Shown piece after piece: positions 492 through 49,927 of a DNA stretch of 64,000 bases. Position 1 is the stretch's first letter. Each line of letters begins with the position of its first letter. The notes below the pieces were generated by a model that did no database searches, was not told the DNA's origin, and was given only the letters and a program-made list of their open reading frames with translations. Origin of the DNA: Klebsiella pneumoniae (GTDB lineage: Bacteria > Pseudomonadota > Gammaproteobacteria > Eutrophobiales > Eutrophobiaceae); assembly GCA_945878555.1 (NCBI GenBank), contig CAMDWI010000010.1, positions 6,559 to 70,558 of the forward strand, in the 5' to 3' direction. The position numbers and the translations under genes are program-made.

Positions 492-2483
492 ATGATATCC
501 AGGTACAGTGGTAAATTTTCTTCAAAATGGGTGGCCAGCTGTATAGGTTTGATGCTGACGGGGGTAACAGGCATCGATGCCTTCGCGGCACCGGCACCGT
601 ATGCTGATACTGTTATCATCAATGGAAAGGTCATCACCGCCGATTCAGACGATATCAAGGCGATAACCATTGCCGAGGCCATCGCGATCCAGGGTGAACG
701 TATCCTCGCTGTAGGCACGAATAGCGAAATCCAGAAGCTGGTTGCCGACTGGACCGAGGTGGTCGATGCGAAAGGCAACACCGTCACGCCGGGTTATATT
801 GATACTCACAATCATATCTACGAGACTTCTACCGGTTTTCCGTGGGTCGTTAAATCTATCCCGGACCTGCTGGAAATCACGGTTCGAGGCAATACACCAC
901 AAGAACTGACCGACAAGGTGGTTCAGGCCGTTGAGGCGCGGGCGAAGCAGATACCGGCGGGCAAGTGGATCCGCATTGCGATGGGACCTCCGGCAATCGC
1001 CGTGCCGGCGATGAACACGGACCTGCTGAATCGTGCGGCGATCGATAAGGTCGCACCTAACCATCCGGTTTTGATCACCACCCGTGGCGGTTCTATCCTG
1101 AATGGTGCGTCTATTGCGGCTATCGAAGCCTATTATGGTAATGACTTGCCGGCCGATTACTGGATGGTTGATAAAGAACGGGGCTGGTCGGGGGATTATA
1201 CTGACTTCGGGCGTTGTACCAGTCTGGATCTGATTGGTACGCAGGATCAGGAGACCTTTAACAAGTACATCAAGGGTTACTTCGAAGTCATGCAGGCGAA
1301 TGCACAGATAGGTGTGACGACATACAAGAGCCATATCCAGTGCGAAGGCGGATTCAGTGCGACCAATCATATGGATCGTAATGACCTGATGCCGATACGG
1401 ATGGCGTGGGACCATCGTTGGCTGCAACCATTCTCTGACAGTATTGCCGAGTCTTATCGACGTATTGGTGATTTTGTAGGTAGTGGTTCCAACTTCTTCT
1501 TCAGTACCGGCAGTAGTGTTGGTGGTATTGATGCCGGGGGTGTGGGCTGGTGTACTTCAATGGTGGCCAAAAGTCCGGAAATCAAGATGCGTGAGCAGTG
1601 CCCACCTGAGCCGGAGGGTATTGATATCAAGGCGATAGATACATCCAATACCGGGGTTGGTACCGAAACGAAGAACCGGGGCCGTCGTACCGAGCATCTG
1701 GTCACGCTGGCGAAGCTGGCAGCGGAAGGTCGTATGACCAACATCCCTGGCTGGCATTCGGCCGGTGATGGTGCAACCGAGATTATGATGAAAACCTACC
1801 TGCATTATATGCCGCCGGAACGCATCAGGATGCTGCGCACCACGAGCGACCATTGCCATTCCGTGACACCGGAAGAGATCGAGAACGCCGCGCGCACGGG
1901 CCATACTTTTTCCTGTGATGCGACCGAAGTCCCGACCCAGGTCATCAAGGAAGGTTACGGTGAAGAATACCTGACCTGGAATGCGCCGGTCGCCAGTATG
2001 ATGAAGGCCGGTGTGAATACCGTTATCAGCCAGTTTGGTATTGAAACCGAATTGCGTGATTCGCCTTTTGAAGACGGAGTAATGTGGTTGACCCGCAAGA
2101 TCAACGGCGAGACCTGGGGTGTACCGGAAGAGGCTGTGCCGGATAAAATGACTTTGCTGCTGATGATGACCCGCCGTGCCGCCTATCCAATCTGGAAGGA
2201 ACATATGCTCGGATCAATTGAACCCGGTAAAATGGCTGATATTGTCATCCTGAATGGTGACTATATGGCCACACCGGTAGAGGAACTCGATAAGCTGACC
2301 TCAGTGATGACGTTGATTGGTGGCAAGGTATCTTACGAAGCCCCTGAACTGCGGGGTAACACATTCCGTTTTAATACGGCAGATGCGAGCTGGACGATCG
2401 ACATGAAGACACCAACGTCAATCTGGCGCTGGACGGAAGTGCCGAAGATCCCGCCGTTCCTGAACGGAGCCAACGGGTACTGA
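492..2483 (+). CDS. Secreted metal-dependent amidohydrolase (Amidohydro_3 / COG1574-like TIM-barrel hydrolase), tandem paralog 1
   Basis: 663-aa ORF with an N-terminal signal peptide (hydrophobic stretch then AFAAPAP). It has the amidohydrolase metal-binding motif VTPGYIDTHNHIYE (HxH) and the C-terminal GSIEPGKMADIVILNGD signature typical of Amidohydro_3 proteins. It has four paralogs in the window. Confidence 0.85.
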   Translation: MISRYSGKFSSKWVASCIGLMLTGVTGIDAFAAPAPYADTVIINGKVITADSDDIKAITIAEAIAIQGERILAVGTNSEIQKLVADWTEVVDAKGNTVTPGYIDTHNHIYETSTGFPWVVKSIPDLLEITVRGNTPQELTDKVVQAVEARAKQIPAGKWIRIAMGPPAIAVPAMNTDLLNRAAIDKVAPNHPVLITTRGGSILNGASIAAIEAYYGNDLPADYWMVDKERGWSGDYTDFGRCTSLDLIGTQDQETFNKYIKGYFEVMQANAQIGVTTYKSHIQCEGGFSATNHMDRNDLMPIRMAWDHRWLQPFSDSIAESYRRIGDFVGSGSNFFFSTGSSVGGIDAGGVGWCTSMVAKSPEIKMREQCPPEPEGIDIKAIDTSNTGVGTETKNRGRRTEHLVTLAKLAAEGRMTNIPGWHSAGDGATEIMMKTYLHYMPPERIRMLRTTSDHCHSVTPEEIENAARTGHTFSCDATEVPTQVIKEGYGEEYLTWNAPVASMMKAGVNTVISQFGIETELRDSPFEDGVMWLTRKINGETWGVPEEAVPDKMTLLLMMTRRAAYPIWKEHMLGSIEPGKMADIVILNGDYMATPVEELDKLTSVMTLIGGKVSYEAPELRGNTFRFNTADASWTIDMKTPTSIWRWTEVPKIPPFLNGANGY

Positions 2484-2687: not shown

Positions 2688-2716
2688 TTGACATTAGAGT
2701 AAAAGACGCATAATGT
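2688..2716 (+). promoter_or_regulatory. Sigma70-like promoter upstream of amidohydrolase paralog 2
   Basis: TTGACA at 2688-2693. The -10 candidates are CATAAT at 2709-2714 (15-nt spacer) or TAATGT at 2711-2716 (17-nt spacer). It lies ~60 nt upstream of the ATG at 2776. Confidence 0.45.
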
Positions 2717-2775
2717 TTAACGTTAATTTCAGTTGGTTGTTTCAAGGGTTTTCCTTTTATTCAGGGGGTACGACG

Positions 2776-4764
2776 ATGTCCGAGTACAGTGGTAAATTTA
2801 ATTCAAAATGGGCAGGCAGCTGTGTTGGCCTGGTTCTGGCTGGCATATTAAGCGGTGGTGTCTCTGCGGCACCTTCCCCATATGCCGAAACAGTCATCAT
2901 CAATGGCAAGGTCATCACCGCAGATTCAGATGACATCAATGCCGTCACAATTGCAGAAGCCGTCGCAATAAAAAATGACAAGATTATGGCTGTAGGCACA
3001 AACGCCGAGATCCAGAAGCTGGTTGCCGACTGGACCGAAGTTGTTGATGCGAAAGGCAATACGGTCACACCGGGTTATATCGATACCCACAATCATATTT
3101 ATGAGACAGCGACCGGTTTCCCCTGGGTTGTCAAATCAATCCCGGACCTGCTGGAAATTACGGTCAGGGGCAAGACACCGGAAGAACTGACCCAGAAGGT
3201 GATACAGGCTGTTGAGGCCCGTGCCAAGCAGATTCCTGCCGGCAAGTGGATACGCATTGCGATGGGACCACCGGAAACGGCTGTGCCGGCAATGAACAAG
3301 AACCTATTGAATCGTGCGGCGATTGACAAAATCGCCCCGAACCATCCAGTGCTGATTACCACCCGCGGTGGTTCCATCCTGAACGGTGCGTCGATTGCTG
3401 CTATTGAAGCCTATTATGGCAACGAACTGCCGGCCGACTACTGGATGGATGGCAAGGAGCGCGGTTGGTCTGGTGACTATACCGACTTCGGTCGTTGTAG
3501 CAGTCTGGATCTGATAGGTACGCAGGATCAGGAGACCTTTAACAAGTATATCAAGGGTTACTTCGAGGTTATGCAGTCGAATGCGCAGATAGGTGTGACC
3601 ACCTATTCCAGCCATATCCAGTGCGAAGGCGGTTTCAGTGCGACCAATCATATGGATCGTAACGACCTGATGCCGATCCGTATGTCCTGGAACCATCGCT
3701 GGTTACAGCCGTTCTCTGACAGCATTTCCGAGTCCTATCGCCGTATCGGTGACTTTGTCGGTAATGGTTCTGACTTCTTCTTCAGCACCGGTAGCAGCGT
3801 AGGTGGTATCGATGCCGGTGGTGTGGGCTGGTGTACCTCCATGGTTGCCAAGAGCGATGAAATCAAGATGCGTGAACAGTGCCCTCCGGCACCGGAAGGC
3901 ATCGAGCTGAATGCGTGGAAGAACCGCCCGGCGGATGATCCGAGTATTGCCGCAAATCGTGGCCGTCGTACCGAACATCTGGTAACACTGGCAAAGCTGG
4001 CAGCAGAAGGTCGTATGAGCAACATCCCTGGCTGGCATTCAGCTGGTGACGGTGCTACCGAGATCATGATGAAGACCTACCTGCATTATATGCCACCGGA
4101 ACGCATCAAGATGCTGCGTACCCAAAGCGACCATTGTCATTCGGTAACACCGGAAGAAATCGAGATTGCTTCCCGCACCGGTCATACCTTCTCCTGTGAC
4201 GCGACCGAGGTCCCGACCCAGGTTATCAAGGAAGGCTACGGTGAAGAGTATCTGACCTGGAACGCACCGGTTGCCAGTATGATGAAAGCTGGTGTTAATA
4301 CAGTTATCAGTGAGTTCGGTATTCAGGGTGAGTTGCGTGATTCCCCGTTTGAAGATGGTGTTGCCTGGTTAACCCGCAAAATCAATGGCGAGACCTGGGG
4401 TGTGCCTGAAGAGGCTGTGCCAGATAAAATGACACTGTTGCTGATGATGACCCGTTGGGGCGCCTACCCGCTGTGGAAGGAAAATGCTCTGGGTTCGATT
4501 GAGGTTGGCAAGCTGGCTGATATCGTTATCCTCAACGGCGATTATATGGCCACTCCGGTTGAAGAGTTGACCAAGCTGACATCAGTAATGACATTTATCG
4601 GTGGCAAGGTGTCCTATGAGGCCCCTGAACTGAGAGGCAATACCTTCCGGTTCAATACCGCAGATGCGAGTTGGACGATCGACATGAAGACACCAACGTC
4701 AATCTGGCGCTGGACGGAAGTGCCGAAGATCCCGCCGTTCCTGAACGGTGCCAACGGGTATTGA
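2776..4764 (+). CDS. Secreted metal-dependent amidohydrolase (Amidohydro_3-like), tandem paralog 2
   Basis: ORF 2713..4764. I prefer the ATG at 2776 (MSEYSGKFNSKW...) because it aligns with the start of paralog 1 (MISRYSGKFSSKW...). It has a signal peptide and the HxH motif VTPGYIDTHNHIYE. It is about 85% identical to paralog 1 overall, and the last ~33 codons are almost identical at the nucleotide level. Confidence 0.85.
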   Translation: MSEYSGKFNSKWAGSCVGLVLAGILSGGVSAAPSPYAETVIINGKVITADSDDINAVTIAEAVAIKNDKIMAVGTNAEIQKLVADWTEVVDAKGNTVTPGYIDTHNHIYETATGFPWVVKSIPDLLEITVRGKTPEELTQKVIQAVEARAKQIPAGKWIRIAMGPPETAVPAMNKNLLNRAAIDKIAPNHPVLITTRGGSILNGASIAAIEAYYGNELPADYWMDGKERGWSGDYTDFGRCSSLDLIGTQDQETFNKYIKGYFEVMQSNAQIGVTTYSSHIQCEGGFSATNHMDRNDLMPIRMSWNHRWLQPFSDSISESYRRIGDFVGNGSDFFFSTGSSVGGIDAGGVGWCTSMVAKSDEIKMREQCPPAPEGIELNAWKNRPADDPSIAANRGRRTEHLVTLAKLAAEGRMSNIPGWHSAGDGATEIMMKTYLHYMPPERIKMLRTQSDHCHSVTPEEIEIASRTGHTFSCDATEVPTQVIKEGYGEEYLTWNAPVASMMKAGVNTVISEFGIQGELRDSPFEDGVAWLTRKINGETWGVPEEAVPDKMTLLLMMTRWGAYPLWKENALGSIEVGKLADIVILNGDYMATPVEELTKLTSVMTFIGGKVSYEAPELRGNTFRFNTADASWTIDMKTPTSIWRWTEVPKIPPFLNGANGY

Positions 4765-4843: not shown

Positions 4844-4874
4844 AAATCGCATTTAGGTGATCGGGGTAATTTGT

Positions 4875-5309
4875 ATGAAAAATTTTGGTCAGTTCACTCT
4901 CTGTACAGTTGCGGTAATGCTGTTCGTCCTTTTACCGTTACGGCTGGTATGGTCTGCTGATGAAAATGCATCAGTGGCCCAGGTCTATCTGGAGTTTGAT
5001 CCTGCGACCGGTCAGTTTGTCTCAGTGCCAGCAACGGCTGAAAACAGTCCGGACGGTGCAAATGGAATGGGTGGTAGCACAGCCCCTCATGCTGCAACAG
5101 CCACACCGGATGCAGCGGGTGCTTCTTCTGCAACGGGTACGGCTGCTGCTGTCACTGCTGCACCGCAATCCCAGGCTGCGGCTGACGGAACTGCCGCCGT
5201 GGACGCATCTGCTCCTGCTGCGGGTGGTCTTTCACCGGTGCTGATCGGTGCTGTAGTCCTGATTGCACTGGGTGGAGTTGTAATGATGATGCGGAAGAAA
5301 ACCGCGTAG
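4875..5309 (+). CDS. Small secreted/anchored protein, amidohydrolase-associated family member A (signal peptide, YLEFDPATGQF motif, Ala/Thr-rich linker, C-terminal TM + RKK tail)
   Basis: ORF 4857 (GTG)..5309. I prefer the ATG at 4875 (MKNFGQFTLCTVAVMLFVLLPLRLVWSA is a good signal peptide). The mature part starts with ...VAQVYLEFDPATGQFVSVPA. An Ala/Thr/Gly-rich low-complexity region follows, then the hydrophobic segment VLIGAVVLIALGGVVMMM and an RKKTA end. The same architecture and motif recur in the ORFs at 29990-30370 and 43270-43644. An Ala-rich ORF can be a frame artefact, but the family recurrence argues that this one is real. Confidence 0.6.
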   Translation: MKNFGQFTLCTVAVMLFVLLPLRLVWSADENASVAQVYLEFDPATGQFVSVPATAENSPDGANGMGGSTAPHAATATPDAAGASSATGTAAAVTAAPQSQAAADGTAAVDASAPAAGGLSPVLIGAVVLIALGGVVMMMRKKTA

Positions 5310-5383: not shown

Positions 5384-5417
5384 CACAATGCCGGCACATG
5401 CCGGCATTGTGCTTTTA
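5384..5417 (+). terminator. Probable rho-independent terminator (perfect palindrome CACAATGCCGGCA-c-ATGCCGGCATTGTG followed by CTTTT)
   Basis: Read directly from the sequence. A 13-bp perfect stem with a short T-run lies ~75 nt after the stop of the small ORF. Confidence 0.5.
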
Positions 5418-5532
5418 ATGACTCCCACCCGACTTTCTGTCGGGTCCACTGTCTGATCACGTGGAGATAGAAATCTATACCGGATAACTTATACTGCCTG
5501 CCTTGATTGAAAATCCGGGTCCGGACGGGAAA

Positions 5533-6615
5533 ATGAACAGCTTGGTAGTAAAACTGGTCCTCGTAATCGTGGTTACGCTGGCAGTAGTGTCAGATATTCC
5601 CCGTCTCGGCGCACATCCACTCAGTCTCAGTTACAGCAGCTTCCGACTGGAGCAGAAACAGGTTGTAGCTGTCTATCGGCTGCCAATTGATGATATGGAT
5701 CTGTTGCTCAGGCTGGATAGCGACATTGATGGTGTAGTAACGATTGAAGAGGCTCGCCGGGCCAGTGAAGCGATACTTGAATATCTGCAAAACTGGACCA
5801 GAATATCCATCAACGGTGAAACAGTCAGTCCACAGTTGCAACTACTCGATATCTGGCAAGATAACGAACAGTTTCCCTATGTGCAGATTAGCGTTCTGTA
5901 TCCATCAGACAACGTCATTATCAAGCTGGACGCAAATGTTAATGTATTGACTGATCTGTATAAATATCATCGTAATCTCGCCGAGTTCATGCTCGGTGAT
6001 CAACGTGAGGAGCATATTTTTTATCTGGGTAATACCTGGACCGGCACTCGTGAGCTGCAACGAACATGGAGTGATGCAGGTCAGTTTATCAAGCTGGGTA
6101 TAGAGCATATATTTGGCGGATACGACCATATTCTGTTCCTGCTGGGTCTGCTATTGGTCGCAGGGAGCCTGCGCAGGCTGGTTGTCATTGTTACATCATT
6201 TACCGTGGCACACAGTATTACGCTGGCATTAAGTGCATTCGGGGTGGTACAACCTGCGGCACAAATGGTTGAGGTGATAGTTGCGCTCAGTATTGCCTGG
6301 GTGGGTCTGGAAAATATGGTTTTCAGCAATTTCAGATACCGCTGGATACTTACGTTTATTTTTGGTCTGGCCCATGGATTTGGTTTTGCCTCCGTGTTGC
6401 AAAATATGAATCTGCAGCGCGAGGGATTGCTGATGGCGCTGCTAACGTTTAATCTGGGTGTAGAAATCGGTCAGCTGTTGATAATCGCTGTATTCTGGCC
6501 CGTGTTGCAACAGCTTGCCAGGACCCGACAACGTGACCTGATCGTAAGGCTTGCCTCGATGGTCATCCTGATATTCGGAACATTATGGTTAGCGGAGAGA
6601 TTGAAATGGTTTTGA
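5533..6615 (+). CDS. HupE/UreJ-family membrane protein (putative metal-ion transporter) with an N-terminal periplasmic extension
   Basis: ORF 5503 (TTG)..6615; I prefer the ATG at 5533 (MNSLVVKLVLVIVV...). The C-terminal half has several TM segments and HupE/UreJ-like motifs (GGYDHILFLLGLLL, then ...GLAHGFGFA...). The N-terminal ~170 aa is soluble. Confidence 0.5.
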   Translation: MNSLVVKLVLVIVVTLAVVSDIPRLGAHPLSLSYSSFRLEQKQVVAVYRLPIDDMDLLLRLDSDIDGVVTIEEARRASEAILEYLQNWTRISINGETVSPQLQLLDIWQDNEQFPYVQISVLYPSDNVIIKLDANVNVLTDLYKYHRNLAEFMLGDQREEHIFYLGNTWTGTRELQRTWSDAGQFIKLGIEHIFGGYDHILFLLGLLLVAGSLRRLVVIVTSFTVAHSITLALSAFGVVQPAAQMVEVIVALSIAWVGLENMVFSNFRYRWILTFIFGLAHGFGFASVLQNMNLQREGLLMALLTFNLGVEIGQLLIIAVFWPVLQQLARTRQRDLIVRLASMVILIFGTLWLAERLKWF

Positions 6616-8077: not shown

Positions 8078-9091
8078 ATGCCAATGCAGTTTCTCCGGCC
8101 CGAGCTGGCAATCTGGTTACTGCTGTTACCGCTGGTTGGGGTGTTATGGCTATTATATGTTCGGGACAAGAAAAGGTTCAGGGTGCAGGCTGGGTTTGGC
8201 CAGTCACTGCAGGCACAATCCAGCTTCAGCACCGGCCGTAATGAAATCCTGGTGCTGGTCGCGGCGTTTATTGCGGTCACAGCCATAGTACTTGCTGTCA
8301 TGCGTCCGCAGTTGTACCTGGACCGATCGCTGCCAGAGTATGAAAAGCAGGATCTGGTGCTGATCCTGGATCGGTCTGCATCAATGCAGGCACGTGATGT
8401 ACCACCTTCGAGATTCGCCAGGGCGATACAGGAGATCAAGGCTTTTCTTGGCGAGAAGCCGCCGGAGATTGAACGGGTCAGTCTGGTCGGCTTTGCAGGG
8501 ACCGCGATCACACTGTCACATCTGACACGTGACCTGGACACCTTGTTTTTTTTTCTTGACTGGACTGGTGAAGACCCCCGTGTGTATTACGGTACTGATC
8601 TGACCGCGGCGCTGACCAACGCGCTGGAGCTGGTAAAAAAGGACGAGGAACGCGGGAAGGAAACCGTCCCGGCCCGCAAGATTTTTCTGGTGCTGTCCGA
8701 CGGTGATGATCACAGTGAAAAGCTGGTGTCCATGCTGGACCAGCTGCAGCGTAACCAGATCCGGGTGCACAGCATTGGTATAGGATCGGAAACTGCCGTG
8801 CCTATGCCAATTGCGGAAGAAGGTGGAGAGACACAATATCTCGAGGATGAGGAGGGTAACCAATTGACCACACAATTTGACGAATCGACGCTGCGGATGG
8901 TGGCAGACATGACCGGGGGACGTTTTTTCCGTTCCACCACCGGCCATGAACTGGCGGATTTTATCGCCGAGATTGTACGTCAGGAAAAACGTCAGATCGG
9001 ATTCAAACGTTCAGAGGAGTTTATGGACCTGCACATACCCCTGTTATTACTTGCCAGTCTGGCCTCGATTGTTCTGCTGGTGAAAATATGA
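8078..9091 (+). CDS. VWA-domain membrane protein (BatA-like)
   Basis: Two N-terminal TM segments, then a VWA domain with the MIDAS motif LVLILDRSASMQ. The stop overlaps the moxR start (ATGA at 9088-9091). Confidence 0.75.
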   Translation: MPMQFLRPELAIWLLLLPLVGVLWLLYVRDKKRFRVQAGFGQSLQAQSSFSTGRNEILVLVAAFIAVTAIVLAVMRPQLYLDRSLPEYEKQDLVLILDRSASMQARDVPPSRFARAIQEIKAFLGEKPPEIERVSLVGFAGTAITLSHLTRDLDTLFFFLDWTGEDPRVYYGTDLTAALTNALELVKKDEERGKETVPARKIFLVLSDGDDHSEKLVSMLDQLQRNQIRVHSIGIGSETAVPMPIAEEGGETQYLEDEEGNQLTTQFDESTLRMVADMTGGRFFRSTTGHELADFIAEIVRQEKRQIGFKRSEEFMDLHIPLLLLASLASIVLLVKI

Positions 9092-10116
9092 GTACTGCAA
9101 GCACTGCAGCAACAATCACCCCGGCCGCTGCGTATGATTCCATTACGATGCTGGAGCGGGAAATTGCCAAGGTTATCGTTGGACAGCATCTGCTGGTACG
9201 CCGCCTGCTTACCGGCCTGTTTGCAGCTATCCCTTATTCCTTTACCGGGGGCAAGGTCAAGACCGGTTGTGGACATGTGTTGCTGGAAGGTGTCCCGGGT
9301 GTGGCAAAGACACTGACGGCCACCACGCTGGCTCATACAATATCGGCACAATTCCAGCGTATCCAGCTGACGCCTGATATGTTACCTGCCGACATTATCG
9401 GGACACGTATTTACGAGTCGAGTACGTCCAGTTTCCGGATTGAAAAGGGACCGGTATTTACCAATGTGTTGCTGGCCGACGAGATCAACCGCGCCACCTC
9501 CAAGACCCAGAGCGCCCTGCTTGAGGCCATGCAGGAACGCCAGGTCACTTTGGCCGACTCGACGTTTGAACTTGCGGATCCCTTCTGGGTGCTGGCTACC
9601 CAGAATCCGGTTGAACAGGAAGGTGTGTACAGCCTGCCCGAGGCGCAGCTGGATCGTTTTTGCATGATGCTGCGGGTTGGATACCCCGGTGCCGCCGAGG
9701 AAGTGGAAATGTTGCACCACCGTTTCCAGTCGCTGGATCTGGACCACCGTCTGACCACAGCCCAGGTAACTGAAACGCGGACGATGATCCGGGACACGGT
9801 CCATGTGGATGACAAGATCATGGAATATATCGTCCGTCTTGGTCGTGCTACCCGTGATCCTGGTGAAGCCGGTCTTGCCGATGTACGTGAAATGGTATTA
9901 CTCGGTATGTCACCACGTTCCTACCAGCACGTGCTCGCTCTTGCCCGGGTCAATGCCTTCATGAGTGGTCGTGATTACATGTTGCCGGCTGATGTGAAGG
10001 AAATTTTCCCGGATACCGCCAGACATCGAATTGCGAGGACAGTCAGGGCAGAGGTGGAAGGGATTGAGACAGACATGATTATCGCCAGGTTGCTGGATGC
10101 AGTACAGATCCCCTGA
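9088..10116 (+). CDS. MoxR-family AAA+ ATPase
   Basis: Walker A LEGVPGVAKT and Walker B LLADEINRA; length (342 aa) and motifs are typical of MoxR/RavA-class ATPases. It is followed by a DUF58 gene, as in canonical MoxR operons. Confidence 0.85.
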   Translation: MSTASTAATITPAAAYDSITMLEREIAKVIVGQHLLVRRLLTGLFAAIPYSFTGGKVKTGCGHVLLEGVPGVAKTLTATTLAHTISAQFQRIQLTPDMLPADIIGTRIYESSTSSFRIEKGPVFTNVLLADEINRATSKTQSALLEAMQERQVTLADSTFELADPFWVLATQNPVEQEGVYSLPEAQLDRFCMMLRVGYPGAAEEVEMLHHRFQSLDLDHRLTTAQVTETRTMIRDTVHVDDKIMEYIVRLGRATRDPGEAGLADVREMVLLGMSPRSYQHVLALARVNAFMSGRDYMLPADVKEIFPDTARHRIARTVRAEVEGIETDMIIARLLDAVQIP

Positions 10117-10128
10117 CAGGAATGCACA

Positions 10129-11010
10129 GTGCTGCCTGATCACCTGATTAGTGACCTCCGCTATATGGAGATATATACAGGACGGCGGTTTCCGAACCTG
10201 CGGGCGGGCTCCTTTCGCAGCAGGATGCGTGGCCCCGGTTTTGATTTTGATGAACACCGCGCCTACCGTGCCGGTGACGACGTGCGCCGGATAGACTGGA
10301 ATGTGACCGCACGACTGAATGCACCTTATGTACGCGAGACACATGCCGAGCGAGAACTGAACGTCATGATAGCCGTGGATGTCTCTCGCAGCATGATGCT
10401 GGGTACCGGTAAATATTCGAAAAAGGAGATCCAGTTGTTGCTGGCCGGGTGCCTGGTTTTTTCCTCATTGTCGGATCAGATCAATACCGGATTTCTCTCA
10501 TTTAGCGATCGGGTGCATGATTTTTACCCGCCGCGTCGGAACCGTGTCCAGGCCTGGCGGTTTCTGGAGCAGTTATGGGCGATGCAGCCGTCTGCAGGCG
10601 AGACAGGCATATTGTCGGCCGTCAGACATCTGGACAGCCATTTCCGCCAGGAAGGAGTCGTCTTTCTTATCTCCGATTTTCTGACGGCAGAAAATCTCGC
10701 TGAATCCCGCGAGTTAAAGATACTGGCAGCCAGACATGACATTATCGCGGTTGTTATTGAGGACGCGCTCGAACTGGAATTGCCTGGCGGTAATGCAGCT
10801 GTGGAGTTAAAGGACATGGAGACGGGACGGCGCAGGCGGATTGGATTAGATGCCTCCCAGCGGCAGCGTTATGCAGAGGCGATGCAACAACGCCGTCAGC
10901 AGCTGGTGGATGCGTTCTACCATGTCCCGATGGATTATGTGTTTGTGCGCTCGGACCAGCGCGCAGTGGAGTCATTATTGAACCTGTTTGCAGTGAGGAG
11001 GCGGATGTGA
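10129..11010 (+). CDS. DUF58-family protein (MoxR-associated, VWA-like)
   Basis: GTG start. The characteristic DUF58 N-terminal region is present (FDEHRAYRAGDDVRRIDWNVTARLNAPYVRE). It lies immediately downstream of moxR. Confidence 0.75.
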   Translation: MLPDHLISDLRYMEIYTGRRFPNLRAGSFRSRMRGPGFDFDEHRAYRAGDDVRRIDWNVTARLNAPYVRETHAERELNVMIAVDVSRSMMLGTGKYSKKEIQLLLAGCLVFSSLSDQINTGFLSFSDRVHDFYPPRRNRVQAWRFLEQLWAMQPSAGETGILSAVRHLDSHFRQEGVVFLISDFLTAENLAESRELKILAARHDIIAVVIEDALELELPGGNAAVELKDMETGRRRRIGLDASQRQRYAEAMQQRRQQLVDAFYHVPMDYVFVRSDQRAVESLLNLFAVRRRM

Positions 11011-12011
11011 AATTGACAGTGATGTTATCCGGTGTAGTGAGCCTGTTGTTACTGCTGGGCGGACCGACTGTGGCGCAACAGGCAGAGGCACCTGTGCTAC
11101 CGGGCGCAACAACCGACACGAGCAATGCCAACAGCCCGGTTCAGGTGCGACAGTGGGTAGATCGTACCGCCATTTTTCCCGGTGACAAGGTCAATTATTA
11201 TCTGGAAATCTCGGCCGCCCCTAACGTGGACATACTGTTGGATGATCTGGATGCCGGCCTGATCGAGTTGACCGGACTGGAATTCGTCAATATGGAACAG
11301 CGAACAGACGAGATTGATGGCACGCGTACCCGTCTGGTACATTATGAATTTACCACTTATGACCTGAACACACCGGTCATGCAGATAGGTGGCCAGACGG
11401 TGCGTTATTATTCCCGCAGCAATACCGCACAGTCCGGCTCTCCGGAGGGCGAAGTGGTGCTTCCACCCACGGCCGTATCATTACGCAGCACGCTCGCCGC
11501 CGAACCGCTACGGTCGAGGCTGCGTGACGGTACATCAACTGTCATAACCGCCGCCGATACCGGCTGGGTTTCAATAACCGGTCTGTTGCTGATATTGTTA
11601 TCAGCATTGCCGGTGGGAGTCTGGGCGATCAGCTGGTGGCGTCAACGGACCGAAGCCGTGCGGCAACAGGAGCAGGTCCATGCAACCGTGGTAGCTGAAC
11701 AAGGTGTCCTTGAGACCTTGCGTAGTGTGCGTTCTGAGAATGAGCCAGAGCGCCGGGCCGGGTATGATCAACTGGACAAGGTATTGCGCGACTGGCTTTT
11801 ACAATCAGGTGTCAGTCAGGGCACGACATGGACTTCAGGTGAGATGGCGCGTAAGTTGGCAGGCCACGGGCTGACGATGCCGGTGGATCAGTTGGTCGGC
11901 GTTATGGCGGATTGTGAACAGGCACGTTATGGCAGGGCTACCGATTTACCGGATGCCGGCCGCTTCCAGACCGGCGTCGAGCTGGTCCGGAGACTGTTGA
12001 TCGCGCAGTGA
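11007..12011 (+). CDS. Hypothetical membrane protein of the Bat-like cluster (possibly BatD-like)
   Basis: GTG start at 11007 preceded by GAGGAGG, overlapping the DUF58 stop. It has a signal peptide (MKLTVMLSGVVSLLLLLGGPTVAQQ), a periplasmic domain, one TM (ITGLLLILLSALPVGVWAISWW) and a cytoplasmic tail. I recognise no catalytic motif. Confidence 0.5.
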   Translation: MKLTVMLSGVVSLLLLLGGPTVAQQAEAPVLPGATTDTSNANSPVQVRQWVDRTAIFPGDKVNYYLEISAAPNVDILLDDLDAGLIELTGLEFVNMEQRTDEIDGTRTRLVHYEFTTYDLNTPVMQIGGQTVRYYSRSNTAQSGSPEGEVVLPPTAVSLRSTLAAEPLRSRLRDGTSTVITAADTGWVSITGLLLILLSALPVGVWAISWWRQRTEAVRQQEQVHATVVAEQGVLETLRSVRSENEPERRAGYDQLDKVLRDWLLQSGVSQGTTWTSGEMARKLAGHGLTMPVDQLVGVMADCEQARYGRATDLPDAGRFQTGVELVRRLLIAQ

Positions 12012-13027
12012 TGCCGCTGATCTTCCTCGAGCCACAGTTTATCTGGGTGCTGCCGTTACTGGCCATCCTTGGTCTGCTCTGGCGATTTTTCCGCAGGTCG
12101 AATTATATAGCGATAACGACACTCACGTGGCTGGATCCTGTTGTAGACAAAACCTCACTCTGGCGGCGTCTGCCTTCCATACTGATATTGCTGGCAACCG
12201 TGCTGATTGTGCTGGCGTTGATGGGCCCGGTTGTACCCTACACTGAACAGCAGGTCGAGTCCGAGGGACTGGATATTGCGATTGTGCTTGACCTGTCTGC
12301 CAGTATGCAGGAGGTGATGGACCGCAAGGAACCGCCACCCGGAACCCGGGTGGACCGGCGACTGGAAAAGATGACGATGGAGCAGGAAGGCAAGACCAGA
12401 CTGGTTACAACGCTGGATGCCTTGCGATTGTTTATTAATAGTCGGCGCGAAGACCGGATTGCCCTCATCGTATTTTCAGACAATGCCTATGTGGTCAGTC
12501 CATTAACCTTCGATTATGACTATTTGCTACAGTATCTCGATATGATCGATGCGAATATCCTGCAGGGCGAGGGCATGACCGCCATTGGTGACGGTATTGC
12601 ACTTGCAAATTACCTGCTTGACAGACAACGCGAGGACCCGCCACGTAGCCAGGTGATTGCTGTCTTTACTGATGGTGAGCACAACATTGGTCGGGAACCG
12701 GTCGAGGTGCTGGGCGAATCGAATGCAGTCGGCATACGTTTCCATGTAGTCGGGGTTGATCTGGAGGAGAAGATCAAGAGTAATGAGCCGGTCAAAAATC
12801 TGATTGGGGCAGTAACAGGCTATGGCGGGCGGTATTTTGATGCGAATACCGAGAGCGAGTTATTTGAGGCATCCAGGACTATCTCCGGCCTGGAGAAGGT
12901 CCAGCTGGTCAGTCGCGAGTACGTTCGCCATTCCCCCGTGTTTCACTGGTTTGCCTTGCCCGCTGGCCTGTTAGTGCTGATGGCGTTTGCCTTGAGAACC
13001 AACTCTTACTTTACCGATTTCACCTGA
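12011..13027 (+). CDS. VWA-domain membrane protein (BatA/BatB-like)
   Basis: Starts ATG at 12011 (or GTG at 12008) and overlaps the upstream stop. N-terminal TMs, then a VWA domain with IAIVLDLSASMQE, and a C-terminal TM. Confidence 0.75.
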   Translation: MPLIFLEPQFIWVLPLLAILGLLWRFFRRSNYIAITTLTWLDPVVDKTSLWRRLPSILILLATVLIVLALMGPVVPYTEQQVESEGLDIAIVLDLSASMQEVMDRKEPPPGTRVDRRLEKMTMEQEGKTRLVTTLDALRLFINSRREDRIALIVFSDNAYVVSPLTFDYDYLLQYLDMIDANILQGEGMTAIGDGIALANYLLDRQREDPPRSQVIAVFTDGEHNIGREPVEVLGESNAVGIRFHVVGVDLEEKIKSNEPVKNLIGAVTGYGGRYFDANTESELFEASRTISGLEKVQLVSREYVRHSPVFHWFALPAGLLVLMAFALRTNSYFTDFT

Positions 13028-13255: not shown

Positions 13256-14398
13256 ATGACCAAAATGAATATCAGATCCACAATACTTAAAGCAGCCGCG
13301 CTGCTGCTGTGCCTGACGCTGGGCAACGCGTATGCGCAAAACGGCGAAGGAGAGGATAATGATCGTCTCGAACGCGTGGGCCCGACCATGTGGCGCGTGC
13401 GTCCAACCGAATCGCCGTATGAAAACTGGTTTGCCGCCAACAAGGACAAGATGCCGCATTATGCTGGTCTCTTGATCCAGGATGCCCGTACCGAACCGCT
13501 TAACCAGCGTTGGGAGCAGTTTGGTGTTAACGGTTTGTACATCAAGATGGCCGACTACCAGATCACAGATGGCTGGTTGCTGGAAATTCCGGCAAAGGGC
13601 GAGATGAAACCACAGCGGCACATGTTTGAGGCTGGTCTGTATTTCTTCGGCGGCCCGGGCCATATTATCCTGCAACAGGAAGGCAAGCGTCCGCAGCGGG
13701 TGGATTTCAAATATCGCACGCTGTTCTCGGTACCGATGAACGTCCGTTACCAGATTTTTAACGATAGTGACAAGCCGGTGCGTATGGTGGCTGTAACCAG
13801 CTTCCCGTTCATGTTGAATGCGACCAACAGCGAGAAGTTCGTCTGGGAAAACGATTTTGCGTTCACTGATCGTTATGACGCCGAAGAAGATTTTGCGACC
13901 TACAGCGAACATACCGGTGCCAATGACACAGTCACCAACGTCGTACCGGATGCGGTTGAATTTGAACTGGATTCCTACGACCATCGTGGCAAGGGTACAA
14001 CGAACATGCACTGGAAGATGGCCGGTAACTCGGTACTCGACATGCACGTATCAGAAATGCCTGCCGGCGTGTTCAAGAAGGCCCACCGCCACAGTTCAGA
14101 CGCCTTTATTCTGTTGACCTCAGGCAAGGGTTATTCAATCACCTGGCCAGAAGGTCAGTATGAAAAACGGGTACGTGTAGACTGGCAGGAAGGAACAATC
14201 TTTGTTCCACCAATATACTGGTACCATCAGCATTACAACCCGGAACCGGAAGGTTCGGCACGGTATATGGCGATCAACGCACCACCGATCGTTGTAAACC
14301 TGGGTCTGCGGTTCAACGACCAGCTTGAGACTGATTTGCCTGAAGTCGAGGCCGAGTTCAAGGCTGAAGTCGAGAAGCGCAAGAACAACAAACAGTAA
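13256..14398 (+). CDS. Secreted bicupin-family protein (two cupin domains; paralog of 17742-18857 and 41675-42895)
   Basis: The signal peptide (MTKMNIRSTILKAAALLLCLTLGNAYAQ) is unusual for a cupin dioxygenase. The C-terminal cupin has the motifs KKAHRHSSDAFILLTSGKG and IYWYHQHYN. Overall it is collinear with the other two bicupin ORFs. Confidence 0.7.
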   Translation: MTKMNIRSTILKAAALLLCLTLGNAYAQNGEGEDNDRLERVGPTMWRVRPTESPYENWFAANKDKMPHYAGLLIQDARTEPLNQRWEQFGVNGLYIKMADYQITDGWLLEIPAKGEMKPQRHMFEAGLYFFGGPGHIILQQEGKRPQRVDFKYRTLFSVPMNVRYQIFNDSDKPVRMVAVTSFPFMLNATNSEKFVWENDFAFTDRYDAEEDFATYSEHTGANDTVTNVVPDAVEFELDSYDHRGKGTTNMHWKMAGNSVLDMHVSEMPAGVFKKAHRHSSDAFILLTSGKGYSITWPEGQYEKRVRVDWQEGTIFVPPIYWYHQHYNPEPEGSARYMAINAPPIVVNLGLRFNDQLETDLPEVEAEFKAEVEKRKNNKQ

Positions 14399-17518: not shown

Positions 17519-17741
17519 GCGTATTAACATGGGCATGTCCCGCCATCCAGCCAAGTCTGCTTGATGCAGACACACCGTCCGGCTATAATCTTCAGGCTGA
17601 TAATGTCATCCATAACAAGACATTATGCACACTGAAAATCATCCCTTTCCCGTCCGGAACGATGATATTTCTCCAAGGTCAGCACTAGTCTGTACGGTCT
17701 GGTGCCTGCCGTTTAATCCAGAACAGAACGAGGAAGTACTC

Positions 17742-18857
17742 ATGGCCAAAGACGCAATTGTCTCCGAAGAAATGGCGAAAAAATTCGCCAGTGAAAAGGA
17801 AACTCCCTACACCCGCTGGGTGAAAAATGAAGGCCTCGATATCATCGACGCCATGTATGTCCCTGATCTGTATAACGTCGAATTGAAGCCCTGGGCCAGC
17901 CGCAACGGCCACGGTGTATTTATCAACCATGATGCGTCCAGGACCACGAATGACTCTTACGTTTGTGAAATCGACCCGGGCCAGAAACTGACCCCGCAAC
18001 GTCAGTTGTTCGAAGAAACCATCATGATACTGAGTGGCCGCGGTTCAACCACGGTCTGGAACGATGCGGGCAAGAAGGTATCATTCGAGTGGCAGGCAGG
18101 TTCGCTGTTCGCTGTGCCGCTGAATACCTGGCACCAGCACTACAATGGTTCCGGCAAGGAAAAGGCACGTTTTATCTCTGTGACCAATCTGCCGCCGATT
18201 ATGAATATCTATGAAGACCCGAACTTTATCTTCAATACCTCTTATGACTTCAAGGGCCGTTTCTCCGGTGAGGCGGACTACTTTGCAGCCAAGCAGGAGA
18301 TGAGTGGTCTGTTACTGGAGACAAATTTTGTGGCCGATGCGGTAAATCTGCCGCTGATCGAGGCGAAGGAGCGCGGCGCAGGTGGTGGTCATATCCGTTT
18401 CAATTTTGCGAAGAGCTCGCTGAATAGTCATATCTCCGAATTTCCGGTCGGTACCTACAAGAAGGCCCATGCACACGGCCCAGGCGCATACGTGATCACA
18501 CTGGCAGGCGAAGGCTACTGTCTGCTGTGGGCGGAAGGCGAAGAGCCAAAACCGTATTACTGGAAGAAAGGCACACTGATTACCCCACCAACGATGTGGT
18601 ATCACCAGTGGTTCAATACCGGCACCACACCGGCACGTTATCTGGCCTACAAGTACGAAGGCGTTGCAATTCGTAATTCACAGGGCGTACCCAAGGCCTG
18701 GATTAGCCGTCGCATTGGCGGTCATCAGATTGACTATGCGGATGAGAGCCGTCAGGTACGTACCATGTTTGCCGATGCACTGGCAGCCAAGGGTATGACA
18801 CCGAAGATGGATGCCGCCTACGAGGCTGAAAAGGCAACATTACCACCGCTGTCATAA
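17742..18857 (+). CDS. Bicupin-family protein (cupin-type; gentisate-1,2-dioxygenase-like architecture), cytoplasmic paralog
   Basis: ORF 17625..18857. I prefer the ATG at 17742 (MAKDAIVSEEM...) because it is preceded by GAGGAAG and aligns with the N-terminus of paralog 41675-42895. The cupin motifs are WHQHYN, KAHAHGPGAYVITLAGEG and MWYHQWFN. There is no signal peptide. Confidence 0.7.
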   Translation: MAKDAIVSEEMAKKFASEKETPYTRWVKNEGLDIIDAMYVPDLYNVELKPWASRNGHGVFINHDASRTTNDSYVCEIDPGQKLTPQRQLFEETIMILSGRGSTTVWNDAGKKVSFEWQAGSLFAVPLNTWHQHYNGSGKEKARFISVTNLPPIMNIYEDPNFIFNTSYDFKGRFSGEADYFAAKQEMSGLLLETNFVADAVNLPLIEAKERGAGGGHIRFNFAKSSLNSHISEFPVGTYKKAHAHGPGAYVITLAGEGYCLLWAEGEEPKPYYWKKGTLITPPTMWYHQWFNTGTTPARYLAYKYEGVAIRNSQGVPKAWISRRIGGHQIDYADESRQVRTMFADALAAKGMTPKMDAAYEAEKATLPPLS

Positions 18858-18865
18858 TCAGCTTT

Positions 18866-20494
18866 ATGGCTGATACACAGGTATTAATTGTCGGGGCAGG
18901 CCCGGTGGGCCTGACCCTGGCAATCATGCTGGGCCGACTTGGTGTGCGCTGTACACTGATAGAACGTAATCCGGCACCGTCCGGTCTGCCGAAAATGGAA
19001 CGCTGTAATGCCCGTACGATGGAGATCTACCGGCGCCTGGGTATAGTTGATCAGATCCGCAAGGCTGGCCTGCCAGAACACTGTCCCATGGATGTCTTTG
19101 TCGTCACCCGTCTGGTGGACGAGCCTATCCTGCGATTGCCCTATCCATCCGTAAAGGAATGCAAGGCGGACATTGCAGCACATAATGACGGTACACGGAC
19201 ACTGGAACCGTATCAGCTGATATCCCAGTACACGCTGGAACCGCTGCTGAAATCAATCGCTGAAAATGACCCGAACATCGATGTGCGTTTTGGTCATGAA
19301 TTTGTCCGGTTTGAGGACGAGGGCGATCATGTCATCACCCATATAAAAAAGACCGACGGGACTAAGCTGACCATCAGTGCGGATTATCTGGTCGGTTGTG
19401 ACGGTGGCGCCAGCCCGGTGCGCAAGCAGATGGGTATCAAGCTGGCAGGTGATGGTGAAATGTTGTCCCTGTATCAGGCGCTGTTCCGTTGTGACGACCT
19501 GTATGAACGTATCCCTATCGGCAAGGGCCGGCATTACCACGTGTGCGATGCCCAGTCCGGATTTATTATCGTGCAGGACGACACCCGTCACTTTACCCTG
19601 CATGCCGTGGTAGAGGACGAGTCGGAAATGCCGAAGTTGTTTGAAAGGTTGGTAGGCATGCCGATCAAATACGAGACGCTTTTTATCGGCAAATGGACGC
19701 AGCGCCTGCTCGTTGCCGACAAATACGGTGAAGGTCGAGTATTTATTGCCGGTGACTCTGCCCATCTGGTGATCCCTACCGGTGGTCTGGGTATGAATAC
19801 CGGTGTGGGTGATGCAACAGATTTGGCCTGGAAGCTGAAGGGAGCACTGGAGGGCTGGGCAGGCGAACATCTGCTTGCCTCCTACATGAGCGAACGGCTC
19901 CAGATTGGTATCCGCAACGTCAAGGCGTCAGGACGAGCCAATGAAGGCCGCTATCGCTGGCGTTCGGCCTATAAACCGGAGATTCGGGATCAGACACCTG
20001 AAGGTGCGAAGATCCGTGCCGAGGTGGCAGAAATCGCGAATATCGAGCAACGTAAGACCAACGAAATTCTCGGTATCGAGGCCGGATATCGTTATGTCGA
20101 TTCCCCGCTGATCTGGCCGGCAGCCGGTAAGGGGCCCGACCCGGATGCGCAATATTATATGCCGACCACCTGGCCCGGCTTTCGCCTGCCACACGTCTGG
20201 TTAAAAGACGGCAGCGCCATCCATGATCGGTTAGGCAAGGGCTATACGCTGCTGCGTTTTGACCAGGACCGCCATGATTTTTCAGAACTGGCTGCCGCGT
20301 TCCAAAAGACAGGCGCGCCATTCGAGCAGCTGAGTCTGGATGATGCACATGCGGTTGAGGTCTATGAGGGTTACACGCTGTTGTTACTGCGCCCCGACCT
20401 GCACATCGTCTGGCGTGGTAAGGAAGCACCCGGCGATCAACAATGGCTGGTCGATGTCGCCACCGGCCACCGTCTGCCGCCTGTGCTGAACTGA
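18866..20494 (+). CDS. FAD-dependent aromatic-ring monooxygenase (PheA/TfdB/MhpA-type flavoprotein hydroxylase)
   Basis: 542 aa. It has the N-terminal dinucleotide-binding motif LIVGAGPVGLTLA, a DG-type motif (GCDGGASPVR) and the GD motif IAGDSAHLVIPTGGLGMNTG, all typical of group A flavin monooxygenases. Confidence 0.8.
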   Translation: MADTQVLIVGAGPVGLTLAIMLGRLGVRCTLIERNPAPSGLPKMERCNARTMEIYRRLGIVDQIRKAGLPEHCPMDVFVVTRLVDEPILRLPYPSVKECKADIAAHNDGTRTLEPYQLISQYTLEPLLKSIAENDPNIDVRFGHEFVRFEDEGDHVITHIKKTDGTKLTISADYLVGCDGGASPVRKQMGIKLAGDGEMLSLYQALFRCDDLYERIPIGKGRHYHVCDAQSGFIIVQDDTRHFTLHAVVEDESEMPKLFERLVGMPIKYETLFIGKWTQRLLVADKYGEGRVFIAGDSAHLVIPTGGLGMNTGVGDATDLAWKLKGALEGWAGEHLLASYMSERLQIGIRNVKASGRANEGRYRWRSAYKPEIRDQTPEGAKIRAEVAEIANIEQRKTNEILGIEAGYRYVDSPLIWPAAGKGPDPDAQYYMPTTWPGFRLPHVWLKDGSAIHDRLGKGYTLLRFDQDRHDFSELAAAFQKTGAPFEQLSLDDAHAVEVYEGYTLLLLRPDLHIVWRGKEAPGDQQWLVDVATGHRLPPVLN

Positions 20495-20678: not shown

Positions 20679-21410
20679 CTATTTCGCGCCAGGGGCCGGC
20701 TCATACGGACGACCCGCACGCCGACACCAGCGCTCCCAGGCCCGCTCGAACGTATAGGGACCACGGCGTTTCAGGATGGCATCCACCTCACCCTCACTCA
20801 GAAATGTAATCTCACCCAGCATACTGGCCTTGAATTGCAGCTCCGCATTCACTTCCAGATAGATCGCGCTGAATACTACCTCGCGTACTGAATGACCAAT
20901 GACGACACAACCATGCCCGCGCATCAGAGCCGCCCGGTTGCTACCCAGACTGACAGCCAGATCGCGTCCCATCGCCATATCGCTGACCAGCAGTGTAGTG
21001 TCGCCGAAATTGGTTCGAGAGTCCCAGATGGGTACATGGGAGCCCATGCCGGCACACATATGCAGCAACGGTTTCAAACTGGTCCCGGTGACACCGTAAG
21101 GGATGACATTCGGGCTGTGGTTATGGACCACGGCGGTGACCTCTGGTCGTGCCTCATAAATCGCGCCATGGATATGACGTTCGGCATACGGGTCCATGCC
21201 GCGCGCATCTATCGGTTTGCCTTCCAGCGTGAATTCAATCAAATCACTGACTTCAATACATTCAGGTGCACGTGAGCGAGACATGATATAGCGATCCGGG
21301 TATTGCGGATGGCGTATGCTGATATGTCCGAAAGAATCGACCACACCCTCCTTCGCAAGTATATGGTTGGCGGTGACCAGTTCTTCCAGCGCAGCATCAA
21401 TCAGAGTCAT
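20679..21410 (-). CDS. Class II aldolase/adducin-family protein
   Basis: 243 aa, matching the class II aldolase N-terminal-domain pattern (ANHILAKEGVVDSFGHISIRHP...HGAIYEARPEVTAVVHNHSPNVIPYG). Confidence 0.7.
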   Translation of the reverse strand: MTLIDAALEELVTANHILAKEGVVDSFGHISIRHPQYPDRYIMSRSRAPECIEVSDLIEFTLEGKPIDARGMDPYAERHIHGAIYEARPEVTAVVHNHSPNVIPYGVTGTSLKPLLHMCAGMGSHVPIWDSRTNFGDTTLLVSDMAMGRDLAVSLGSNRAALMRGHGCVVIGHSVREVVFSAIYLEVNAELQFKASMLGEITFLSEGEVDAILKRRGPYTFERAWERWCRRAGRPYEPAPGAK

Positions 21411-21507
21411 AAATCATTCCATCAGGTTATTGTTTCAGGATGTGGTGTATCAGAATTCAGTATATTTAATGCGATGGATTTCGCAACCGCTCAGGACATG
21501 AAGATAC

Positions 21508-22209: not shown

Positions 22210-22286
22210 GGTCTACTCCAGGACAATTTCTTTAAACGGTTTTTTTGGCCCGGCATTATAAACCAGAGTGTTTGATAGACATACAA

Positions 22287-23327: not shown

Positions 23328-23555
23328 AAACGCCTCCGATAAACGGACCAGACTGCATCCAGGTTTAATGTGAGTATCGATCAACAGATTATCTGATTTT
23401 ACGACTGGTTCCTATCCTCAACTCCTTCAACGGTTTGCTATCAGCATACGCATACCATCTGTATGCCCGCTTTAATTAATGATAATCTCTGGTATTAAAT
23501 TAGCAACCGATCTGACCCGGCCGGGTCAAAGAGACTATAACAACAGGAGGGCAGG

Positions 23556-29937: not shown

Positions 29938-29956
29938 GGTTCAGAGAGGTCGAACA

Positions 29957-47289: not shown

Positions 47290-47291
47290 CC

Positions 47292-49918: not shown

Positions 49919-49927
49919 CAGGGCAGT

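Follow-up and report, generated by a model that had tools for sequence, protein, structure and literature searches.

Small membrane-anchored proteins encoded beside, and diversified together with, exported YtcJ-like amidohydrolases: a previously unannotated family with a putative tethering role

The activators of PBP1a and PBP1b, LpoA and LpoB, are lipoproteins of the outer membrane; they have globular domains, and a long disordered tether lets them reach their periplasmic enzyme. Here we describe a family of small proteins whose layout recalls this arrangement, represented by three genes in a 64,000-nucleotide (nt) stretch of contig CAMDWI010000010.1 (assembly GCA_945878555.1, labelled Klebsiella pneumoniae and placed by GTDB in the Eutrophobiaceae; hereafter the window), each in an operon with a gene for an exported amidohydrolase. 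As in LpoA and LpoB, a small tip that binds the partner would be joined to an anchor in the membrane by a long low-complexity linker, with one paralogous enzyme for each protein. The small proteins differ from the Lpo proteins in using a C-terminal inner-membrane helix as anchor, a tip of only ~30 residues and an amidohydrolase as partner, and the two groups are unrelated in sequence. TonB, too, has a similar layout, with reversed topology, and is not a sequence relative. For the enzymes, the closest solved folds are 3IGH and 3ICJ, metal-dependent YtcJ-like hydrolases of uncharacterised function (Foldseek with the enzyme A2, E=2.5e-26, TM-scores 0.56/0.74, 15-16% identity). Unlike these, the window enzymes are exported and ~180 residues longer; the solved proteins have no small partner on record. 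An original prediction, made from the sequence alone, had proposed the small proteins as a candidate undescribed partner family tethered to the inner membrane with its motif in the periplasm. The genetic linkage, conservation and protein-level selection described below support that proposal, and we infer that the motif binds the enzyme.

The three small proteins are named T1 to T3 (the first to third open reading frames, ORF1 to ORF3, of the original prediction) and the neighbouring amidohydrolases A1 to A5; collected loci carry the prefix L and homologs the prefix P. The small genes are laid out as follows.

4875-5309, forward strand: T1, 144 amino acids (aa), likely start ATG 4875, family hidden Markov model (HMM) E=1e-43; signal peptide 4875-4955, module ADENASVAQVYLEFDPATGQFVSVPAT 4956-5036, disordered linker 5037-5228, transmembrane helix 5229-5291, tail RKKTA 5292-5306.
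29990-30370, reverse strand: T2, 126 aa, likely start ATG 30370; signal peptide 30370-30245, module SDRDTPAYLIYVDPVTGKYTTTKP 30244-30173, linker 30172-30059, transmembrane segment 30058-30008, tail RKSPT 30007-29993.
43270-43644, forward strand: T3, 124 aa, likely start ATG 43270; signal peptide 43270-43338, module SDGDVDYSSPYITVDPKTGQLITVNPGPRLKTH 43339-43437, linker 43438-43563, transmembrane segment 43564-43614, tail RRLRHRQPG 43615-43641.

The translations share a single layout: a Sec signal peptide, an acidic module of 24-33 residues, a linker, a C-terminal transmembrane segment and a basic tail. All three ORFs are present where they had been predicted, with the architecture claimed for them. 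Their signal peptides end in a small-x-small pattern of the A-x-A type (VWS/AD in T1, AAA/SD in T2 and ASA/SD in T3, the slash marking cleavage), and the linkers that follow the module comprise 38-64 low-complexity residues, chiefly Ala, Ser, Thr, Pro and Gln, ahead of a hydrophobic segment of 17-21 residues and a K/R tail. When every ORF of the window was searched with the family HMM, T1, T2 and T3 were its sole members. Public gene calls include all three products with identical sequences.

Five amidohydrolase genes and two terminator-like sites accompany the small genes.

492-2483, forward strand: A1, Amidohydro_3, a tandem paralog of A2 to which it is 87% identical.
2713-4764, forward strand: A2, Amidohydro_3 with signal peptide, likely start 2776; directly upstream of T1 in the same operon.
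5384-5411, forward strand: terminator-like hairpin ending the A1-A2-T1 unit.
28069-29937, forward strand: A3, Amidohydro_3, 38% identical to A4 and convergent with T2.
29956-29987, no strand assigned: terminator-like hairpin between the convergent T2 and A3.
30367-32220, reverse strand: A4, Amidohydro_3, overlapping the start of T2.
43718-45934, forward strand: A5, 738 aa, Amidohydro_3, the most divergent of the five; directly downstream of T3.

All five pass the threshold of Amidohydro_3 (PF07969), with 94.3-122.4 bits against a cutoff of 29.7, and all have signal-peptide-like N-termini, in agreement with the earlier description of five secreted paralogs. Each small gene has one operon partner, T1 with A2, T2 with A4 and T3 with A5. 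The ATG of T2 overlaps the TGA of A4 (ATGA), which suggests translational coupling of T2 with A4, and the stretch between T3 and A5 contains no terminator-like site. The statement that a small gene lies beside every paralog holds for loci, each of the three having one, and not for paralogs, since three small genes serve five enzymes.

To place these pairs in a wider context, we collected 52 loci in three ways: twelve family members were looked up exactly, GTDB species representatives were scanned with a T3 pattern, which returned 4 loci only, and metagenomes were scanned with a T1-like pattern, which returned 28. All were scored by one script, and among these 52 loci, many of them short contigs and some near-duplicates, an amidohydrolase lies within 278 nt of the small gene in 47; a contig edge truncates four, and L050 alone lacks such a gene. 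Amidohydrolase linkage, which the original prediction had expected other genomes to show, is thus found in 47 of the 48 informative loci, or in 33 of 35 when distinct module sequences are counted. Linkage extends over divergent subtypes and very different surroundings, and the amidohydrolase is the sole neighbour common to all subtypes. Other genes recur around the pair and are not universal, namely HupE/DUF6702, MoxR, DUF58 and VWA genes, bicupins, an EutA-like protein, TonB-dependent receptors and Tct transporters; in Ca. Eutrophobius the pair sits among trp genes.

The pairing is also specific to subtype. T1-like small proteins occur with A1/A2-type enzymes, T2 with the A4 type, T3 with the A5 type and a further, YDGD-type small protein with the A3 type, such that the class of the module matches the class of the enzyme in 25 of 26 pairs. 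Examples from outside the window include a locus in another organism (L051), in which a YDGD-type small gene lies downstream of two A3-type enzymes, and a soil contig (L052) that repeats the convergent A4/T2/A3 arrangement. In a mirror-tree comparison, module and enzyme distance matrices correlate at r=0.79, a value reached by 0 of 5000 Mantel permutations and due in part to shared species history; the agreement within single genomes across paralog classes cannot be explained that way. The small proteins are therefore almost always encoded beside, and have diversified together with, a secreted amidohydrolase.

The linker of T1 is rich in Ala, and ORFs in other frames overlap it; the original prediction had itself raised the concern that the Ala-rich ORF could be a frame artefact of GC-rich DNA. 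That the small ORFs are spurious, arising by frame from Ala-rich, GC-biased sequence beside real genes, is effectively refuted. Between the window and L016, the T3 module (31 codons) differs by 22 synonymous and 2 non-synonymous codons; the corresponding counts are 13 and 3 for the T1 module compared with L022, and 8 and 2 for the T2 module compared with L009. The module is under purifying selection at the protein level. This synonymous excess, together with the matching public annotation and the architecture predicted by AlphaFold2 (AF2), sets even the Ala-rich ORF apart from a frame artefact. The same architecture in 254 homologous clusters, the ATGA coupling of T2 and the confidently predicted AF2 elements point in the same direction. 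T1 to T3 are real genes, and given purifying selection and the wide recurrence of the family, their shared architecture and repeated occurrence lie far beyond chance.

How large is this family? With the three sequences as queries, a word-indexed search returned 59 small homologs, a number that one iteration raised to 86. When 1.84 billion representatives of 50% identity clusters were searched exhaustively with the HMM, 254 clusters passed E<=1e-3 and 88 passed E<=1e-10, so that the motif is conserved well beyond the three copies from which it had been described. Most of the 150 matches listed, of the 254 clusters, are 90-170 residues long. The 238 members that were analysed retain the layout of T1 to T3: a C-terminal transmembrane segment is present in 229 of them, the linker spans 20-67 residues (median 46) and is composed of 18% Ala, 12% Ser, 11.5% Thr, 9% Pro, 9% Gln and 8% Gly without any Trp or Cys, and the C-terminal tail has a median of 9 residues with ~3 K/R. 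The earlier view that the family is unrecognised and undescribed agrees with our database searches. Pfam gave no match to the small proteins at E<=0.01. In NCBIfam, T1 alone was hit, spuriously and through low complexity, at 14-17 bits where the cutoffs exceed 1000; in PDB sequences, a profile search found nothing below E=0.13, and no match to the T3 module or to A2 was found by tblastn in 72,556 plasmids. As judged by these searches, the family is previously unannotated and its full-length proteins fall outside Pfam and NCBIfam models.

The sources are nearly all metagenomes and metagenome-assembled genomes labelled Gammaproteobacteria, for example Ca. Eutrophobius, and the family is rare in binned genomes yet common in metagenomes. 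One T3/A5 pair lies on a contig binned as Anaerolineales (L016, JBFGQG010000274.1, 5568 bp). Because all other named sources are Gammaproteobacteria, this placement is probably a binning error, lateral transfer being the alternative. Several members carry misleading names in Joint Genome Institute (JGI) annotation ('LPXTG-motif cell wall anchor', 'cobalamin biosynthesis Mg chelatase CobN' and 'membrane protein SpoIIM' for P0059, P0028 and P0057).

Conservation is concentrated in the module. Across the 238 members, the D-P-x-T-G turn has its Asp in 95%, its Pro in 98%, its Thr in 98% and its Gly in 100%; a Tyr precedes the turn by four residues in 88%, and Asp is frequent (58-60%) at two positions near the N-terminus of the mature protein, which form a D-x-D element. 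Among 61 aligned members, the D-P-x-T-G turn and one Asp near the mature N-terminus are invariant and nothing else is. The motif first proposed, Y-[LI]-x-[FV]-D-P-x-T-G-[QK], is exact in T1 and T3 and only approximate in T2 (YLIYVDP), because there the Tyr sits one position out of register. Subtypes beyond those of the window exist, for example YDGDVDYSAPYVTLDPETGKLITVDPK and AGDEDMNPSVYQxFDPETGY. The contrast between the module and the rest of the protein is marked in the T3 type, in which mean identity is 76% for the module and 67% for the enzyme vs 18% for the remainder of the small protein.

A structural reading of the module comes from AF2, run on T3 with a 34-sequence alignment. The model contains a signal-peptide helix, four short strands at residues 28-30, 34-37, 44-47 and 51-53, with a predicted local distance difference test score (pLDDT) of about 90 for residues 31-50, an unstructured region at residues 61-93 (pLDDT below 50) and a confident helix at residues 94-120. 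The DPETG turn also closes chignolin, GYDPETGTWG, a 10-residue hairpin that folds autonomously (PMC9054626), and the family profile catches single hairpins in large, unrelated Kelch, He_PIG and DUF6923/PepSY-like repeat proteins. For these reasons we read the motif as a beta-hairpin and not as a known catalytic or binding signature. Chignolin and the Kelch and PepSY hairpins share the turn and the strand-turn-strand pattern of the module; they differ in being designed peptides or parts of larger folds, non-homologous to the family, whereas here the hairpin is the entire conserved ectodomain. The small proteins do not match PepSY itself (PF03413, a domain of ~60 residues), and the likeness is confined to the terminal hairpin, as seen in the unrelated P0255. 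Four candidate members with such generic hairpin matches (P0183, P0207, P0252 and P0255, with Kelch, He_PIG, DUF6923 or PepSY-like repeats) were rejected, as was P0089 (E=0.02), which is Cys-rich and has no transmembrane segment.

What, then, might the small proteins do? Standard topology rules, applied to the signal peptide, the C-terminal transmembrane segment and the positive-inside tail, predict an N-out, C-in orientation. The cytoplasmic tail is too short for signalling, and the periplasmic tip, the sole sequence-constrained part, is too small for an enzyme. Since this tip co-evolves with one exported enzyme, and since one of the small genes is apparently coupled in translation to the gene of its enzyme, it is most simply read as enzyme-binding. 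Tethering or control of the enzyme at the inner membrane is the most likely role. In the specific form that we tentatively favour, and regard as possible rather than probable, the small protein is a type-I membrane protein whose periplasmic hairpin docks the cognate YtcJ-like amidohydrolase and acts as a flexible leash. Export by Sec and cleavage of the signal peptide would expose the acidic module of 24-33 residues in the periplasm, with D-x-D near the new N-terminus followed by a two-stranded beta-hairpin with its DP(E)TG turn. A flexible linker free of sequence constraint, of ~46 residues at the median, would join this module to the C-terminal transmembrane helix and its short K/R tail. The hairpin would bind the Amidohydro_3 enzyme encoded by the adjacent gene, probably in that its strands extend a sheet or that it folds against the surface of the enzyme, and one specific paralog would thereby be leashed at the inner membrane near the co-encoded Tct, HupE and MoxR/VWA components.

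Several observations weigh against such a leash. Many paralogs have no small gene next to them, namely A1 and A3 in the window and three or four in L001. In L050 (Logan SRR21285606, 2209 bp), the small gene at 699-1139 (module AADDGINTHAPYLTFDPDTGKF) is flanked by an opposite-strand homolog of a 498-aa window protein (unk498) and by a HupE/DUF6702 gene, and no amidohydrolase is found in the 2.2 kb, which makes it the sole informative locus of this kind. No natural fusion of enzyme and small protein occurs among the 120 A2-type homologs listed, all of which are 585-685 aa long. The mirror-tree signal is in part one of shared species history. Finally, tethering alone leaves the invariant acidic N-terminus unexplained, and for this reason two further readings, in which the module regulates the enzyme or handles its metal, are kept.

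The first holds that the module is a tethered regulator or active-site plug that inhibits or activates the enzyme, for instance by placing D-x-D at the metal centre as a pseudo-substrate. An invariant Asp two to three residues past the cleavage site, the commonness of D-x-D and conservation that extends to the very first mature residues would all fit a plug, and subtype-specific pairing suits it equally well. The partners are, moreover, metal-dependent hydrolases: the HxH ligands (motif PG-x-ID-x-H-x-H after beta-strand 1) are kept as DTHNH in A1 and A2 and as ETHVH in A5. Yet HxH is replaced in A3 (PGFIYSDGD) and A4 (PGFIYNDGD), where the motif alignment looks reliable although the proteins are ~25% identical to A2, and enzymes of the A3 and A4 types still have a small partner without the canonical ligands. 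A constitutive inhibitor made at 1:1 translational coupling would also be wasteful, and we consider a plug unlikely. From their motifs, A3 and A4 may be enzymes of a non-canonical kind or use a different metal.

The second of these readings is that of a metal-handling or maturation factor, in which a cation bound by the acidic module would be handed to the exported apo-enzyme, or the module would stabilise that enzyme. The mature start of T3, S-D-G-D-V-D-Y, has Asp at alternate positions, MoxR-DUF58-VWA clusters are recurrent in the loci, and the gene downstream of T1 encodes an anglerase-like permease:

5503-6615, forward strand: DUF6702-like periplasmic domain (25.3 bits, cutoff 24) fused to a HupE_UreJ_2 permease (163 bits).

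In 'anglerase' metal capture, a beta-sandwich with an N-terminal His is fused to a permease by a linker of ~6-10 residues (PMC12537917). By the definition of that study, the gene at 5503-6615 has the anglerase/DUF6702-HupE/UreJ-2 architecture, with His as the first residue past the predicted cleavage site (LGA/HPLS). It lies directly downstream of T1 in the window and in the closer T1 loci (L001, L020 and L025-L028), and in L050 the small gene is directly upstream of such a permease in the absence of an amidohydrolase. The anglerase and the small proteins have in common a membrane-tethered periplasmic binding module that is exposed at the cleavage site; the small proteins differ in having Asp and not His, a single hairpin, a linker of ~46 residues and one transmembrane helix. 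Against metal handling, the module lacks His and Cys and a single Asp is invariant family-wide; most loci have no HupE gene and T2 loci have no MoxR/VWA genes. As an account of the family, metal handling seems doubtful to us. The same low standing applies to a combined scheme, a modular docking system in which a minimal acidic hairpin of ~30 residues, able to fold on its own and held by the membrane leash, recognises the one cognate paralog with which it has duplicated and co-diverged and presents D-x-D at its metal site, so that the small protein would be both anchor and removable plug or metal donor.

A different possibility is that the hairpin binds another envelope component, such as a TonB-dependent receptor, unk498 or a membrane VWA/DUF58 complex, and that adjacency to the enzyme reflects a shared pathway. 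TonB-dependent receptors, unk498 homologs and MoxR/DUF58/VWA genes do recur around the pairs, L050 has a small gene without an enzyme, and an anchor, linker and tip are also the layout of periplasm-spanning proteins such as TonB and LpoB. None of these neighbours, however, is present in all subtypes, whereas the amidohydrolase is, and the subtype of the small protein tracks that of the enzyme. A partner other than the amidohydrolase is, in our view, rather improbable.

The tripartite C-terminus raises yet another alternative, that of a sorted or processed peptide: either an enzyme like a sortase, rhombosortase or exosortase would cut the C-terminus, or the amidohydrolase would process the conserved N-terminal peptide, as its substrate or as a precursor. 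The resemblance to a sorting or anchor signal noted in the original prediction is borne out for the generic succession of polar stretch, transmembrane helix and basic tail, which the family shares with LPXTG/sortase, GlyGly-CTERM/rhombosortase and PEP-CTERM/exosortase signals. It goes no further, in that the family differs from these signals in lacking a signature motif and HMM matches are limited to fragments covering the transmembrane segment and tail. Isolated C-terminal fragments weakly match LPXTG_anchor, GG_III-CTERM and GPS-CTERM, and the JGI label of P0059 is that of an LPXTG protein. With LPXTG_anchor (TIGR01167, cutoff 15.9 bits), such fragments score 16.8 bits for T1 (profile positions 10-33) and 20.6 bits for P0059 (5-32), and full-length proteins match no sorting-signal model. 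A hydrophobic segment with a basic tail is present at the C-terminus, a feature too generic to assign the family to LPXTG sortase substrates. LPXTG is absent before the transmembrane segment, where T1 to T3 read AAGGLSPV, SMKAPFTA and PKQSGFIA; the GlyGly-CTERM model has no match even at E<=10, GG preceding the transmembrane segment in the T1 type only; and T1 to T3 have neither a PEP motif before the transmembrane segment nor a PEP-CTERM match. T2-type proteins have no conserved motif ahead of the transmembrane segment, no sorting enzyme is encoded within the window, and conservation is N-terminal and not around a cleavage motif. We regard sorting or processing as very improbable. A lipoprotein signal is absent as well. 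No lipobox (L-[ASTVI]-[GAS]-C) is found in signal peptides ending VWS/A, AAA/S and ASA/S, and the single Cys in that of T2 (LVLCG) has Leu at position -1 and is missing from orthologs such as P0012.

Returning to the docking of an amidohydrolase by the hairpin, we asked what the enzymes themselves offer. The AF2 model of A2 has a pLDDT of 84.6 and a predicted template modelling score of 0.86; by sequence alone, searches match no more than the termini. Homologs of the A2 type (120 clusters listed) are 63-90% identical, and the named ones are labelled YtcJ-like, Gammaproteobacteria or Woeseiaceae. Literature searches on the gene combination, on Woeseiaceae with amidohydrolase and on YtcJ with periplasm returned nothing relevant. 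Enzymes of the A1/A2 type carry a C-terminal extension of ~45 residues. In the partnered subfamily it closes with a conserved tail, ...WRWxxxPxIPPFLxGAxG[YF], which AF2 models at low pLDDT; in paralogs without a partner from the same loci (compared in L001 and L029), the ending is ...IPSRxx. For T1, and for T1 only, the tail of the partnered subfamily is a candidate docking site. As a universal docking site the extension was rejected, being absent from A3, A4 and A5.

The role that seems probable, that of a membrane-bound accessory which anchors or regulates a periplasmic enzyme, is of a familiar kind; the family itself is new. It comprises at least 254 clusters at 50% identity outside curated libraries, and strong comparative evidence ties it to an equally uncharacterised branch of exported YtcJ-like amidohydrolases in catabolic islands, which contain TonB-dependent receptors, Tct transporters, cupins and MoxR/VWA genes. 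For annotation there is an immediate gain, as the present labels of members (LPXTG anchor, CobN and SpoIIM) are wrong. Docking by the hairpin, if real, would mean that these hydrolases are organised at the membrane paralog by paralog and not free in the periplasm, and the two proteins would form a very small natural peptide-protein recognition pair that is easily testable. Should docking be combined with a plug or metal-donor function, this would represent a new way to organise and gate paralogous periplasmic hydrolases, present mainly in uncultured Gammaproteobacteria.

Further genes of the window recur with the pairs elsewhere. The protein unk498 (35573-37069, reverse strand) is encoded directly downstream of a TonB-dependent receptor (37290-39905) and has no Pfam or NCBIfam match; its homologs occur in L001, L005, L009, L028, L029 and L050, by TonB-dependent receptors and amidohydrolase loci, and it is possibly a receptor-associated accessory protein. 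Two Bat-like clusters lie at 46270-51953 and 8078-13027, both on the forward strand. One has the order MoxR AAA_3, DUF58, an unannotated 576-aa protein, VWA/BatA and VWA, and the other the order VWA, MoxR, DUF58, an unknown protein and VWA/BatA. A DUF58-VWA-VWA core is found 3' of A5-type enzymes in the T3 loci that are sufficiently long (L005, L007, L011, L013 and L015-L019), with MoxR and the 576-aa protein present in only some T3 loci. Cupin or bicupin genes (13256-14398, 17625-18857 and 41675-42895) and a gene for an EutA-like ATPase (40088-41590) also recur with amidohydrolase loci elsewhere (L005, L013, L033, L038 and L045). The window further encodes an FAD aromatic-ring hydroxylase (18866-20494) and, at 20679-23384, an FAA-family hydrolase, a class II aldolase and an asparaginase; together with the cupins and the EutA-like protein, these suggest a catabolic island for an amide-containing substrate. 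A SurA-like chaperone is encoded in the island as well. Unrelated to the small proteins, a small LPMO_10/BIM1-like protein of the copper-binding type (55339-55899) is followed by genes at 56154-59986 and 60013-61833; this region (56154-61833) encodes a DUF1592/1588/1585/1587/1595 protein paired with a DUF1552 (HXXSHH) protein, and then a 606-aa ankyrin-repeat protein.

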